From: Octopus vulgaris
Lineage: Eukaryota
DNA length: 64,000 nucleotides
Reading direction: 5' to 3'
Assembly: GCA_951406725.2 (NCBI GenBank)
Contig: OX597819.1
Span: 17,484,001-17,548,000, forward strand
The translations under genes and the position numbers were made by a program. Position 1 is the first letter of the stretch. Each line of letters starts with the position of its first letter. Below, in pieces: positions 16,855 to 58,150 of this stretch. The notes below the pieces were generated by a model. The model searched no databases. It was given only the letters and a program-made list of their open reading frames with translations, and had not been told where the DNA came from.

Positions 16855-17150
16855 TTAGATTGGTGTTCAGTTATATCGAACAGGCTGCTAACCGACAACT
16901 ATTCACAGGCGCGGTCCCACTACCGCTCGACACGGGGCCTTTTGCCTGCTGCGTTTCCGCCCTGGGCCGAAGCGACCCTCCTTAGACAACCTGGTCCTGA
17001 TGAGCTCCCTCTCCAGCACCATATTGATGCCGAGCTTAGCGCGGACACCCGATCGCCATAGAAGACCGACTACCAGGACTCCCATCCTCAAACCGGTCAA
17101 CCAACCAAGCCTCCGAGTAGCTAGATTACAGGAGCACGCCACAACTCCCA

Positions 17151-17152
<2 letters not shown>
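16855..17152 (-). ncRNA. 7SL: 7SL (SRP) RNA, full length 298 nt, probably a retroposed copy
   Basis: Minus strand begins GCTGGGAGTTGTGGCGTGCTCCTGTAATCTAGCTACTCGGAGGCT (Alu domain). It contains CGATCGGGTGTCCGCGCTAAGCTCGGCATCAATATGGTG, helix-8 CCCAGGGCGGAAACGCAGCAGG and GTAGTGGGACCGCGCCTGTGAATAG, all colinear with metazoan 7SL. Confidence 0.96.
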
Positions 17153-22002: not shown

Positions 22003-23468
22003 TATATATATATGTATGTGTATGTATACACATCTCTATATACCTACATACATACATGCATACAGATATAACTACACACACACACACATACATATATATA
22101 TATATGCACAGACATATATGTATATATATATATATACACACATGTATTTCTGTATATATATGCGTATATTTGCTTGTGTACATTTGTGTATGTATGCGTG
22201 TGTATACATATGTACTGGTGTACACACAAGTTAATGCTATTTACGTATGTTTGTGTGAGCTTTGCAATTATATGACAATGTTACTGGACTAATTAAATAT
22301 TGTCATGTTCGCAAATACAACAACAACGACATCTACATAACCACCACCCCCACCACGACCACCACCACCATCTACAACAACTACAACAACATGACTAGGC
22401 TAAGACCACTGACAGCACCAGCACCAGCACCACCACCACCAACACCATTGCCAATAACAGCCACAACCACCACCATCACAACAACAACAACAACAAGAGA
22501 AACAAAATGTATTGAAGAATGGGCATTGTGATTTAATTTAATATGCTTAAGGCGAGAAAAGTTTTCCTGAATACCTGATTAGTAATTATGAAGACAGAGT
22601 TATGGTGGTGGGGAGAGGAGGTGAGATAGTGAGAGGAGGAGAAAGAGATTGAGGGAGAGAGAGAGATTGAGAGAGAGAGAGAGAGAGAGAGGAAAGATCG
22701 ATTGATAGAGAGGGATGTTGCGGGTGGAACACGTAGGCTGCACTTGAGGTGAATTCTTAGAATATAGGTAATTAATGTCATGTAATTAGTAGATAATACT
22801 ATATGGTTGAACTTTAACCTGTCCTTATTAGATTGCAGATTGCAAGCGTCAGTCGAAGAAACGCCATCGTATAAGCAACAATATTGCTTTGCCTCGACTT
22901 TCCAGCTTTCGAGGTTAGCTGGGTCAGTATTGGACACAACACTGTGCGTTGTTGTCATGTGGTGTCTTTACGTCACTAGCCATGGCTAAATTAGTGACCG
23001 GTCCGAATACGTGATTAATCAGAAGTTTTACTTGGGAAGACTTAGCAAAATCCCGACTTGGCAGCCGAAATTCTTCTGAGATGTCTTCGAGAAGAGATTC
23101 CTCTCTTTCAATCATAATTGAAAATTAAATTTTGGTAATTGTTCTCATTCCAGAAGAATAGCAAATTAATCCGAATGTTCACCCCTCGGGGGTTTCGCTT
23201 TAATATCAACCTTACCAGTAGAGCTTCGTAAATCCATCGTGATATTATTAAAAGCGAAATCTGTTGTACCATATTGGTAGAAACTCAATGAAGTTAGTTA
23301 CTGTGCTATGTTTAAGCACTCTATTACAAAATTGCATCCAGGTTTCGATTCCGCGTTGCAAATATTTTTCTCGAAATTCTTCGGGACATCATCTTTCAAT
23401 TATTGTTTCTTGCTTTGCAATAACACGAACGCCGTAAATTACACTACGTAATAATAATAATAATAATA

Positions 23469-23503
<35 letters not shown>

Positions 23504-23508
23504 AATCA

Positions 23509-23610
<102 letters not shown>

Positions 23611-23649
23611 TACCAATAATAAGACTAGTGATAATAGTAATAGTAATAA

Positions 23650-23915
23650 TCGCATGGAGAGTAGATGAACTAAACAGCTTAGACAGAAAGACAAGGAAGC
23701 TGCTAACTATATATGGATCACTACACCCAAAAACTGTCACAGACAAACTGTATGTACCAAGAAAAACAGGGGAAGGGACTTATTGGATGTGAACACAGCA
23801 TTAGAGCAAAACAAAATAACATAGCATGGTATCTAAAAATACCACAGAACCGCTATTATTAGAAGTAGGAAAGTCAGGCTTGTGTAAGATGAAAGATTGC
23901 AAAGATAAAGACGGA
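23650..23915 (+). mobile_element. R4/Dong-like non-LTR retrotransposon fragment (post-RT region)
   Basis: Translates WRVDELNSLDRKTRKLLTIYGSLHPKTVTDKLYVPRK, typical of this region in restriction-like-endonuclease (RLE) LINEs. Adjoins a (TAA)n tract. Confidence 0.7.
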
Positions 23916-28761: not shown

Positions 28762-29166
28762 ATGTTTTCCAGAGGCTAAATAACCGTAACATCGTCCTTG
28801 TATACGACTGTAATATTATGTTGGCAAATAAAATTTACTGTTCGGTACTGTTGCCGTATATTTCTCGCTCACAGATTTAAAACAAGTTGGTTTTTCTCTT
28901 TACGAGATCAGCAACCGTGTGTCGTTTAAAAAATATATATAGTAATTGTTGCAACTGGAGGGAGCCTTCATCATTATCCGGTGATTGTCTCACACTGAGG
29001 ACGGGTGGCTACCCAGAAACATAGAGGTCTGTGAGTATTACGTAAGGCTACAGATGAGAGCGATGCCTCCCCATACATATAATACACGGGCAGAAACTGT
29101 GTGCCAGTAGCCAAGTGGAAAAGATGTTTTCCTGGGGCTAAATAACAGTAACATCGTCCTTGTATA
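28762..29166 (+). mobile_element. Retrozyme-like 362-bp monomer with 43-bp direct terminal redundancy
   Basis: 28762-28804 is repeated at 29124-29166. Internal hammerhead, no ORF, (TA)n flanks. Confidence 0.75.
28989..29035 (+). ncRNA. Type I hammerhead ribozyme
   Basis: CTCACA-CTGAGGA-C-GGGT-ggct-ACCC-A-GAAAC-atagag-GTC-TGTGAG. Predicted cleavage after 29029. Confidence 0.8.
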
Positions 29167-35184: not shown

Positions 35185-35641
35185 ATAGTGTGTCTATAGT
35201 CAGCTGGAGGAGATACCTTCCTGGGGCTACAAACTACAGTAGCATCCACCCTTAGGGGTTAGCCATATTCAAATGGCAAATATACGTCACGATGTGTTAC
35301 CGCTACTGTTTATAACTCGCTCTGAGATTTATCATTGTTTGATTTCACTTTCTCAATATCAGTGTCAATCGACACTGGAAAAAGTATATGTATTTGTGAA
35401 GGGAGCTGACTTCTCGTCGACAACCATGATTGTCACACGCTGATGATAGGTAAACACCTTGAAACTCGAGTCCGTGTGTATCATGAGTTGAAGACGGGGA
35501 GGATGACTTCCCTTCACAAATACTGAGAGGGCACAGATAGTGTGTCTATAGCCAGCTGGAGGAGATACCTTCCTGGGGCTACAAACTACAGTAGCATCCA
35601 CCCTTAGGGGTTAGCCATATTTAAATGGCAAATATGCGTCA

Positions 35642-35645
<4 letters not shown>
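35185..35645 (+). mobile_element. Retrozyme-like 352-bp monomer with about 109-bp direct terminal redundancy
   Basis: 35185-35293 is repeated at 35537-35645 (offset 352, few mismatches). Hammerhead at the apex of a long hairpin, (TA)n flanks. Confidence 0.85.
35434..35478 (+). ncRNA. Type I hammerhead ribozyme with palindromic stem III
   Basis: CACACG-CTGATGA-T-AGGT-aaac-ACCT-T-GAAAC-TCGA-GTC-CGTGTG. The stem III region ACTCGAGT is self-complementary. Predicted cleavage after 35472. Confidence 0.88.
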
Positions 35646-35681
<36 letters not shown>

Positions 35682-35721
35682 ATATATATATCGTGACGCA
35701 TATTTGCCATTTATATATATT

Positions 35722-40583: not shown

Positions 40584-40717
<134 letters not shown>

Positions 40718-40744
40718 TATTATTATTATTATTATTGTGCTGCG

Positions 40745-42400
40745 AAATGCTGATGTCAGCTGAAGAGATACGTGACGTGTTGGCTAATTGCACGAGGGAA
40801 AAGTCTCCGGTATTGGATGGCGTTCCCTTCGAGCTTTATATTCATATGCCAGACTTGTTTGATGAGCTTTTGGTAGATGTCTACCGCAACTGGCAGCAGG
40901 ACGGGAAAATCCCCATATCTGTAAGCCGAATTTTGGTGACGCTACTGAGAAAGGATTCGATCAAGGGGAATATTATTGATAACTTTAGGCCTGTAGCTCT
41001 GCTAAATGCAGATTACAAAATCTTGGCCAAGTTGTTAGCAAAGAGGTTGGCGCTTGTTACCAGACTTGTCGGTGGTGTGCAGACTTGCACATCACCGATA
41101 ACAGATCTATATGCGACAAATTCCACCTCACACAATACATCATAGGGTGGTCTGGTAAAGAACCTGGCATGGATGAGGCCCTGATCAATTTGGATCAATC
41201 GAAAGCCTTCGATGGAGTCGACCATAAGTACTTGGAGGCTGACCTTAAGGCAGCTGGTTTCGGCCCCGTTTTCAGAGCCTGAATCGCTGCAAAGTACGAC
41301 ATCTGCTCGGTGATCAAAATAAATGACCGCCTATCAGAATTCTTTAGCATCGCACGTTCCGTCCGTTAAAGATGCCCACTCTCACCCCTTCTCTATGTAT
41401 TGATTTCGTTCCATTACTGCAGAAGCTGGATGTTTCGAGGGGTATCCCGCCTGAGATAGGATGCGGAAAGTTCGTGTTGGCGTGTGCGGACGACGTCACC
41501 GTGATAGTGTCAGATGTCTCGGAAATCGAGATGGTCGGCACTACCCTAAGGGCATACGAAACAGTGACAGGTGCAATGATTAACCAGGAGAAGTCAGTGG
41601 GTCTGCAGCTCTGCACCTGGAGAGGCAGGTCCATGCCAACCAACAGCGTTGTGGGGTGTGAACGGAAGGACCAGTCAAGTTGCTCTGCTTCGGTCCGGAC
41701 CTTTAAGTGAACAACTGGGGTGAGGTGACAGACACGGTGGTCAGTCTCATTCAGAAGTGGGCCGGGGGTGTCAAATGCGTACAAGGCATCTGTCAGTTAC
41801 TACTGTCTGACTGTCGTCCTTTGCCCCGCTTCGTGGCTGAACGGATTGGTGCGCTTGCTCTTTCGCTTCCTGTAGAAGGGACAGGTACCGCTTGTCAGCC
41901 GGTCCATTTGCTGTCAGTACTCGCTGCATAAGGACGGGCAAGACATGCGCTGAGGCTGCAACAGCTCCAGCGATGCCTTAATGGTGAGCAGATGTGGTCG
42001 CCGTTTGTTTGACGCGCTCTTGCGGTGCTCGTCTCCTTGACAGAGCTGCAATCCTGGATCAGGAGTAGACTGAAGCAGGGCGCTTGGCACCTAGAGTATC
42101 TCTAAGTGCTCACAGCCCTCAGCCGGTCGGGCAATGCGGTTGGTGAAAGTTCCACCTTGGAGCTCTATAGCGGATTAGAGGAGGATAAGTGCGACGATGT
42201 TCTTGGAGAGGTTCTGGGCGCCGTGAGGGATCTACTGGCTGGTCTATTCCGGAGGATTTTCAAGCCGGGACCTATGGAAAACTTCCAAATCCCTGGCCTG
42301 GCAGTGCTACCGGGGATCTCAGCTGGTTCGGGATAAGCTCCACATGTACGGGTGTGCAGTCAGATGATCTTTTCAGAGACGCACGCTGAGCGATGAAACT
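40745..42400 (+). mobile_element. Decayed L1/Tx1-like LINE reverse transcriptase
   Basis: Frameshifted RT motifs KSPVLDGVPFELY, NFRPVALLNADYKILAKLLAKRL, LDQSKAFDGVDH, ACADDVTV (YADD site) and GAMINQEKS. Confidence 0.85.
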
Positions 42401-53926: not shown

Positions 53927-53962
53927 TATTATTATTATTATTTTAGTAATATTAAATTTCTA

Positions 53963-54355
53963 AATGTCTCAAAGAGACATGAGCGGTGGTGGAGCGATAG
54001 AGAGGTTGTATACTGTCAACATAACTTGACAGTCCCGTAAGGGAATTACATCACCGCTATTTAGCCCTAGGAATCGTCGACGAAATTTAATATTTCTAAT
54101 TACGGTGACCAGTGAATAGATTTCACTGTAAATATGTATATTTGCGAAGGGTAGATAGGCATCTCAACCAGCAGGTCTCACTATTCTGGGCTGATGATGG
54201 GTTAAGACCCAGAAACATGCATGTCCTCAGGTGTGAATCCTAGCTGGTGGGGGATGCTTGCCTCCCCTTCGCAAATATAAGGACACAGGAAATGTGTCAA
54301 AGCTGACAGGAAGCGTCGATGCTTCCTAGGGCTAAACAGTTGACTGTATACAACC
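53963..54355 (+). mobile_element. Retrozyme-like element copy with inverted partial duplication
   Basis: Same hairpin/hammerhead/hairpin order as the 35.2 kb copy. TTTAGCCCTAGGAA (54060-73) is the reverse complement of 54323-36, and 54004-20 of 54339-55 (1 mismatch). Confidence 0.75.
54186..54230 (+). ncRNA. Type I hammerhead ribozyme with palindromic stem III
   Basis: CTGGG-CTGATGA-TGGGT-taag-ACCCA-GAAAC-ATGCAT-GTC-CTCAG. ACATGCATGT is self-complementary. Predicted cleavage after 54225. Confidence 0.9.
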
Positions 54356-54388
<33 letters not shown>

Positions 54389-57317: not shown

Positions 57318-58150
57318 GTGTGGAAGATAATTTAAAAATAAAAGTAATTAAAGAATTAAGAAATTAAAATCGACATAAACTTTAAATTAAAATTTTTTCA
57401 AAAAGTTAAGAAATTGAAATTGAATCAAATGATTAAAATTAAATTTAAGAAAACGAACCGAACGTGTTACAGGAAGAATGTTTTTTTTTTAGTTCAAATG
57501 GTGTCTGGGTCCGAAGAGAGATGTAGCGCTGTTGAAGGCGAAGTCTCGTGGTGGTGGATCCATGGTGTAAAGCCAAGCCGAAGACAGTGAGTCGTTCCGT
57601 GGAGTGGTTGGTAGAACGAAAATGACGGGCGACGAGGGTAATTTTATGCAGGCAGATATCCCGTAGGTATTCAGTTAACCGATCGGTTAGCCGACGGCCC
57701 GACTGACCGACATATAAAGAGTTGCAGAGGTTGCATTGGATGCAATAGATAATGTTGGAAGAGATGCAAAAGAAGGGCCCGGATGTGGATAGTGTGTTAG
57801 CTGGGTCTAGGTGATATTGATGATGAGTGGACAGGTGTGACAACGGGGTTTGGAGCTAGGGAAAGATCAAGAATTGAGCGAACTACGGACCAGTAAATCG
57901 CGTAGGTTACAGGTGAGTTTGAAGGAGGGTAGGGGCGGGTTGGGGAAACAGGGAGGGTGGTAGGATTGGATTGGAGACGAGGGAACGCCAGTAGGATTTT
58001 CCGACTAAGGGGTATGAAGGAGGGGTGGTAAAGAGGGGAAAAGGGATGTAATTGGAACATGGGTGTGGGAAAGGAGAGAGGGCAAATCAAATGGTGATGC
58101 TCAAACACGTCTGAAGTTCCATCAGACGTGCACACAAGATTTCCTACAAC
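56700..58150 (-). mobile_element. Penelope-like retroelement remnant (GIY-YIG endonuclease plus 3' pseudo-LTR with hammerhead-like motif)
   Basis: ORF 57445-57843 reads NIIYCIQCNLCNSLYVGQSGRRLTDRLTEY...VARHF. Downstream minus-strand motif CTTT-CTGACGA-A-GAG-caatg-ATC-GAAAC at about 56758-56794. Confidence 0.8.
57445..57843 (-). pseudogene. GIY-YIG endonuclease domain fragment of a Penelope-like element
   Basis: IIY...CxxC..LYVGQS.R.L..R motif. No upstream RT in frame. Confidence 0.8.

Follow-up and report, generated by a model that had tools for sequence, protein, structure and literature searches.

A predicted branched fold shared by hammerhead retrozyme families of Octopus vulgaris

Introduction

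Three loci in a 64,000-nt stretch of the Octopus vulgaris genome (the window; contig OX597819.1, positions 17,484,001 to 17,548,000) each carry a hammerhead motif followed by hairpins, and the paired strands differ in sequence between the loci while remaining able to pair. An initial annotation read this as selection on RNA structure, linked it to Penelope-like elements and proposed that a hairpin ending in TRGGGCTA, within or at the edge of a duplicated terminus, is recognized by a reverse transcriptase or endonuclease. The question is what these loci are, whether their structure is selected, and for what.

Metazoan non-LTR retrozymes are non-coding units of 350-390 bp with a type I hammerhead, found as tandem copies flanked by long target duplications (Cervera and de la Pena 2020, PMC7229834). 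The main text of that study makes no mention of octopus or cephalopods. Vertebrate retrozymes have been argued to be non-autonomous Penelope derivatives (Li, Clavereau, Pollet 2026, bioRxiv 10.64898/2026.07.22.740005), and non-autonomous Penelope-like derivatives have been noted in algae (PMC8557442). How Penelope-like elements choose their template (PMC11167929) and how retrozymes are mobilised (bioRxiv 10.64898/2026.07.22.740005) are both stated as open.

Results and Discussion

The three loci are copies of separate retrozyme families

The loci at 28.8-29.2, 35.4 and 54.1 kb are one copy each of the separate high-copy families C, B and A, which are built of hammerhead retrozyme units of 352-354 nt. 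All three families are hammerhead retrozymes, an already-known class of non-autonomous Penelope-like elements. Their features are as follows, with helices numbered P2 to P9 and the two 3′ ends of insertions called E1 and E2.

28762..29166, plus strand: family C copy, 405 nt, with the hammerhead core at 28995-29029 and P3 at 29109-29139
35185..35645, plus strand: family B copy, 461 nt or 1.3 units, a partial tandem that ends at E1 and is followed by (AT)n
Parts of the family B copy, plus strand: core 35440-35472, P2 35530-35546, P3 35550-35580, P5 35600-35611, P6 35614-35629
53943..54082, minus strand: family A inverted arm, 5′-truncated but with the tail, starting in the P3 loop and covering P4 and P8 as far as end E2
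54082..54357, plus strand: family A main arm, ending at E1 before an (ATT)n tract, with about 36 nt deleted after 54339
54110..54128, plus strand: copy A hairpin P9, which covaries across families
54139..54277, plus strand: copy A long rod with the hammerhead as its cap, base TATTTGCGAAGGG/CCCTTCGCAAATA
54186..54230, plus strand: copy A type I hammerhead motif with stem I CTGGG/CTCAG, core 54191-54225 and a palindromic stem III
54282..54298, plus strand: copy A hairpin P2
54301..54333, plus strand: copy A bulged hairpin P3 with TAGGGCT at its end

All the motifs that had been pointed out are present where they were placed. The base of the rod pairs TATTTGCGAAGGG (54139-54151) with CCCTTCGCAAATA (54265-54277) in copy A and TATTTGTGAAGGG (35391-35403) with CCCTTCACAAATA (35510-35522) in copy B, a true two-sided change. 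The hammerhead cores, each flanked by its stem I, are at 54191-54225, 35440-35472 and 28995-29029; from the hammerhead consensus, the predicted cut in copy A falls after 54225. The downstream hairpin P2 and the bulged hairpin P3 occur in all three loci, and the inner pairs of P3 do switch. Homology extends beyond the ribozyme core, as the consensuses of families A, B and C are 57-66% identical over the whole unit and a model of the region from P2 to the tail, run over the window, picks out only these loci with their partial duplicates.

Copy B is 98% identical to its family consensus, and its unit junction is spanned by a complete P4 (35236-35243 with 35302-35309). Copy C is old and decayed, with 85% identity to its consensus. 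Folding energies lie far below those of shuffled sequences for copies A (z -9.3) and B (z -6.2); copy C, which has lost the base of the rod stem, folds no better than shuffles (z +0.43). No ORF of at least 120 aa overlapping copy A or B was found in the window, and an open frame over part of copy C is on the opposite strand and mostly microsatellite. Rfam scans targeted at the three copies found no match to a hammerhead. The matches listed for an Rfam scan of the entire window were SRP RNA and microsatellite noise; the former is a full-length metazoan SRP RNA gene (16855-17152, minus strand, 239 bits). A short inverted duplicate of the copy B 3′ end lies across (AT)n at 35690-35718 (minus strand) and can form a hairpin. 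The window also has fragments at 23424-23792 and 40717-41710 that we take to resemble LINE reverse transcriptase/endonuclease ORFs.

At least seven families in the genome

The genome is microsatellite-rich and comprises 2.8 Gb in 227 contigs. DNA searches gave 1,922 (A), 2,890 (B) and 1,238 (C) first-look candidates, which are not copy numbers. The best matches, 40 scored per family, were 89-95%, 96-98% and 76-83% identical for A, B and C, respectively. An exact pattern for the TRGGGCT hairpin (P3) matched 9,973 times in the genome, with no match for the reversed control and none for the pattern itself in metagenome contigs. Families were sampled from 30 automatic loci out of the first 100 matches listed and from 40 regions picked for variety. 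Further families came from this sampling, namely D, E and A2, together with several sparsely sampled lineages; three were sampled more deeply. There are at least seven families in total, the seventh, lineage J, being known from one locus. The six consensus units are 350-362 nt long and 61-79% identical.

Every unit has a type I hammerhead, with core and stems I-III identified by motif and covariation. The units are non-coding and arranged in tandem or partial tandem, as dimers, trimers and an array of about 11 units. That array, head to tail and of family E, is at G000:C4:13620761-13624365 (L219-L234). Hammerhead core variants were seen in family E, with a U3-A8 swap, and in A2 and J, with CCGA.

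Other kinds of element were considered and rejected. An autonomous Penelope-like element does not fit, since the units, 350-362 nt long, follow one another head to tail and no ORF separates them. The inverted arms vary in length and 5′ junction and lack the fixed terminal inverted repeats of a MITE. A tRNA-derived SINE would have a fixed 5′ head resembling a tRNA and one 3′ tail, whereas here the 5′ ends scatter all round the unit and the 3′ ends are of two kinds.

A common branched fold is predicted in at least seven families

Folded singly, the units have the helix order P9, the rod with its hammerhead cap, P2, P3 with TRGGGCT, the P4 multiloop and P8, and the six family consensuses folded separately gave the identical order. 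P4, a long-range helix, closes a multiloop containing P5 and P6, with P5 absent in A2 and weak in E. The strands of P4 are at nearly fixed positions, 6-8 and 79-81 after P3. P8 includes a conserved TCTC..GAGATTTA motif, and this motif, P2 and P3 have the strongest sequence conservation with little covariation. Circular folds of A, B and C are 9-12 SD below shuffles. The initial annotation missed P4 to P8 because copy A lost about 36 nt there and stops before the 3′ strand of P4.

Among 351 consensus pairs, G-T outnumbers A-C by 7 to 1. The sense fold is more stable in all six families, by only 1-15 kcal/mol, and sense and antisense energies are close in four of them. The evidence modestly favours a fold acting as RNA of the hammerhead-sense strand rather than as single-stranded DNA.

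Pairing is kept between families and lost in single copies

In the least biased test, pairs predicted from one family alone were transferred to another by a sequence-only alignment. Compared with random placement of the same substitutions, broken pairs were fewer than chance (p<0.05) in 26 of 30 directed comparisons, which share six families and are not independent. Changes on both sides kept pairing in 284 of 412 cases across these comparisons (186 expected). The signal was strongest in P4 (43/46 against 20.6 expected), P9 (28/34 against 14.5) and the rod with stem I (168/252 against 115.5); P5-P7 gave 27/45 (20.0 expected), and P8 and other pairs 9/18 (7.7 expected). In the same test the hairpins downstream of the rod showed little covariation beyond chance for P3 (9 of 16 two-sided changes paired, 7.4 expected) and none for P2 (0 of 1). 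The hairpin ending in TRGGGCTA, put forward as covarying, is thus mainly conserved in sequence.

Alignments of real copies agree, with the reservation that the structures for these alignments and for the private mutations below were chosen on the same sequences and are biased towards pairing. Across 19 copies from seven lineages, two-sided changes affect 35 of the 54 named pairs. Pairing holds in 92% of cells, many of them as G-U; the figure is 78% for shuffles and 29-46% when partners are slid. The module from P2 to the tail alone, in 17 copies, has two-sided changes at 13 of 27 pairs. In these alignments P3 alternates A-U with G-C at its inner pairs but barely varies at its outer ones. Stem III is a perfect palindrome in all seven families with a different sequence in each, an arrangement described for hammerheads working as dimers (PMC4209133).

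Private mutations, those found in a single copy, leave pairing intact in 75 of 311 cases, compared to 277 of 463 for changes common to at least four copies. They occur in stems at 324/26,073 (0.0124) and elsewhere at 673/50,449 (0.0133), and so look neutral. As private changes are neutral and shared changes keep pairing, inserted copies drift and the replicating source lineages are constrained. Structural conservation in this known class of mobile RNA is therefore well supported and goes far beyond the four items first named, with the rod, P9 and P4 strongest; the selection that had been proposed holds for the source lineages and does not act at the inserted loci. An RNA-editing footprint was rejected for these families, as private A>G and T>C changes are symmetric in stems (97 and 110, p 0.83) and loops (113 and 75, p 0.19).

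Insertions end at two sites and the two arms use different ones

Of 342 runs of at least 60 nt, 152 end at E1 (58-72 nt past P3) and 145 at E2 (102-126 nt past P3), or 297 together. At most eight end within 8 nt of P3, so the TRGGGCTA hairpin is not the terminus it was taken for, the ends lying about 64 and 102-126 nt downstream. It appeared terminal in copy A because about 36 nt are deleted after TAGGGCTAAACAG. P3 does lie within the duplicated segment, as had been suggested: it is wholly inside it in copy B, and the 5′ junction is in the P3 loop in A and C. As a recognition element, the hairpin is plausible as part of a P2-P3-P4-P8 module, without being a terminus and with little covariation of its own.

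E1 is about 60-71 nt past P3 in all six families and inside the P4 multiloop. P4 therefore needs sequence beyond E1, which fits internal initiation. E2 is just past P8, at about 108-111 nt in B and E and 117-124 nt in A, A2, C and D. We found 95 back-to-back inverted pairs, of which 72 are E1 with E2, five like with like and 18 with an unclassified end. E1 with E2 accounts for 72 of the 77 classifiable pairs (p 3e-16 against one half), with all six families represented. Copy A is such a pair, with an E2 arm at 53943-54082 (minus strand) and an E1 arm at 54082-54357. Outside microsatellites, 19 of 32 back-to-back insertions have target duplications of 8-15 bp, against 6 of 992 mismatched controls with duplications of at least 8 bp. 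The E1 and E2 arms and the target duplications are the tail signature of Penelope insertions (PMC8557442) and match the two internal start sites and the extension on both strands seen in vitro (PMC11167929), and this insertion anatomy supports the Penelope link of the initial annotation.

The 3′ flanks are 68-94% AT. (AT)n adjoins most ends of B (39 of 54) and A2 (36 of 48) but few of D (3 of 76). Family differences in target preference and E2 position hint at different partner enzymes.

The predicted cut site is read through in 226 of the 342 runs and 143 have more than one unit, in a length-selected sample; in a position-ordered sample of 46, 16 read through and three exceed one unit. Runs that pass the cut site or exceed a unit imply that most templates were circles or uncleaved multimers. 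Among 192 unselected runs, 17 5′ ends are within 4 nt of the predicted cut (5.3 expected), a 3-fold excess in a region where the palindromic stem III blurs junctions. It is not significant at ±2 nt, and an equally strong peak lies 43 nt downstream. This weak excess suggests that some templates were cleaved linear RNA.

A model for copying by a Penelope-like enzyme

We favour the following explanation, with a probability of roughly 0.7 for the whole of it: the three loci are insertions from retrozyme families with one branched fold, likely copied by a Penelope-like reverse transcriptase-endonuclease. It is based on the family structure, the compensatory changes in the fold, the two 3′ ends, the pairing of E1 with E2 arms, and the target duplications. 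Tandem transcripts would self-cleave as hammerhead dimers through the palindromic stem III, and the cleaved units would be ligated into circles. A Penelope-like enzyme would bind the P2-P3-P4-P8 module and open an AT-rich target by one nick in each strand, staggered by 8-15 bp. Each nick would prime cDNA at a different internal site, E1 in the P4 multiloop or E2 just past P8, and synthesis would run round the template beyond the ribozyme cut site. Spreading would continue only from source copies with an intact fold, which would explain why families covary with one another and copies within a family decay neutrally. The fold would then be a testable candidate signal for borrowing a Penelope-type enzyme.

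It is also possible, if on balance doubtful, that the fold is selected only for the life of the RNA, that is for stability, circle ligation, a quiet ribozyme and nuclease escape, with the starts set by short motifs. The highest sequence conservation, with little covariation, is indeed in such short stretches (P2, P3 and TCTC..GAGATTTA), and the retrozyme circles described so far tend to be extensively self-paired (PMC7229834). In one autonomous Penelope-like family of the octopus the terminal region folds weakly, so a complex fold is no general need of these enzymes. However, stability alone needs no constant branch order or spacing, and both the P4 distances and the position of E1 are nearly constant across six families. 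Copying of uncleaved linear tandem transcripts instead of circles, with the ribozyme of little importance for insertion, is unlikely. Cut-site read-through fits such transcripts as well as it fits circles, the array on C4 shows that genomic tandems exist, some templates were probably linear, cleaved RNA, and a ribozyme-dead RNA of the anole Penelope-like element inserts normally in vitro (PMC11167929). Against this, every family has kept the hammerhead core and the stem III palindrome, with cores intact in 194 of 217, so cleavage is under selection; and most copies have fewer than two units, leaving few sources for long linear templates.

The helices could instead be selected as DNA hairpins, in first-strand cDNA or target cruciforms, for endonuclease recognition. 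The Drosophila Penelope endonuclease needed tail DNA for recognition (recounted in PMC11167929), and the close sense and antisense energies of four families would fit. We consider this improbable, given the wobble asymmetry towards the sense strand and because the fold runs on into a hammerhead, a motif active as RNA. That the loci are host-domesticated structured RNA genes, selected in place, is hardly tenable: covariation itself is all that speaks for it, and there are thousands of dispersed copies whose private mutations are neutral for pairing, with copy C decayed and copy A carrying a deletion.

Within the favoured reading of copying by a Penelope-like enzyme, we tentatively suggest that P2-P3-P4-P8 is a template-positioning domain like that of telomerase RNA, used by a dimeric Penelope-type enzyme with its subunits starting at E1 and E2. 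If so, each subunit's start site would serve one nicked DNA strand, the retrozyme would recruit its enzyme by shape alone with no sequence in common with its partner, and a portable handle of 170 nt would be available for Penelope-driven gene writing.

Comparison with known retrozymes and Penelope-like elements

The octopus families resemble metazoan retrozymes in the unit, the hammerhead, the tandems, the duplications, the paired fold and the proposed Penelope-like mobiliser (PMC7229834). Cleavage and circles have been shown for those retrozymes and are predicted for the octopus units. The published account of those retrozymes gives folds of single sequences; it is not known to describe a module conserved beyond the ribozyme or to map where insertions end, both of which are available for the octopus families. 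Vertebrate retrozymes belong to the same class and have the same proposed partner, in a sampling described as having no molluscs (bioRxiv 10.64898/2026.07.22.740005). In Xenopus, 24 of 57 families match known elements, mostly Penelope-like termini (same source), while the octopus module is in no terminal repeat sampled.

Like the Poseidon element PAc of the green anole (Frangieh et al. 2024, PMC11167929), the octopus units have AT-rich targets and apparently two internal starts, which lie 3′ of the hammerhead and delimit the tail, with extension from both target strands. PAc is autonomous with start sites in the start of its ORF, whereas the octopus unit is non-coding with ends 43-60 nt apart. 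In the octopus, moreover, E1 falls within a multiloop that covaries, and counts across genomic insertions show different sites in use for the two arms of one insertion. Partial tandems, an inverted 5′-truncated arm, a tail at one end and a bias to microsatellites are shared with Penelope-like insertions (Craig et al. 2021, PMC8557442). The tail of the latter is given there as 30-40 bp with no RNA structure assigned, compared to 43-60 nt between the octopus ends.

As far as our searches reach, the new part is a conserved non-ribozyme module with two mapped start sites, in a class that is itself known; in the open-access literature, supplements aside, we found no description of this module. It pinpoints the helices to be mutated, nature supplies compensatory variants of them, and a Penelope-like protein can already be assayed in vitro.

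Penelope-like elements in the octopus genome

Intact Penelope-like ORFs of 781-1,200 aa are abundant in the genome and form several families. A Penelope-like GIY-YIG fragment in the window (57445-57855, minus strand) served as a query for autonomous families. Potential partners were sought by protein and Pfam GIY-YIG searches of the genome, and 80 loci were scanned by BLAST and a covariance model. The module was in the terminal repeat of none of the 80, which represent about eight families, so looking for the same hairpin in Penelope terminal repeats, the check proposed by the initial annotation, turned it up in no autonomous family sampled. Four of the 80 have an independent retrozyme copy nearby, outside the terminal repeat. 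A profile search of retrozyme loci for more distant Penelope clades returned only the same kinds. The autonomous families have (AT)n-flanked ends, and their cysteine linker appears to be of the Neptune/Nematis kind when read against PMC8557442.

At one locus (L256, G000:C7:92344900-92345532, minus strand), an A2 unit is joined directly to the 3′ end of an autonomous Penelope-like element, on the same strand with no (AT)n between. This fusion is possibly a template switch naming a partner; no second one was found among 40 scored. An apparent repeat-ORF-repeat arrangement at L153 was really a local duplication.

In one Penelope-like family, four long-ORF copies have a single in-frame TGA within the endonuclease match (L100, L101/L111, L112 and G000:C2:150726807), at the identical place in L111 and L112. 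It may be a shared stop or be read through, like the selenocysteine Naiads of PMC8557442. The 781-aa family (L295-L304) has repeated GATTGG, TGACGT and a TATA-like box in the terminal repeat after the ORF stop. This set is presumably promoter-like.
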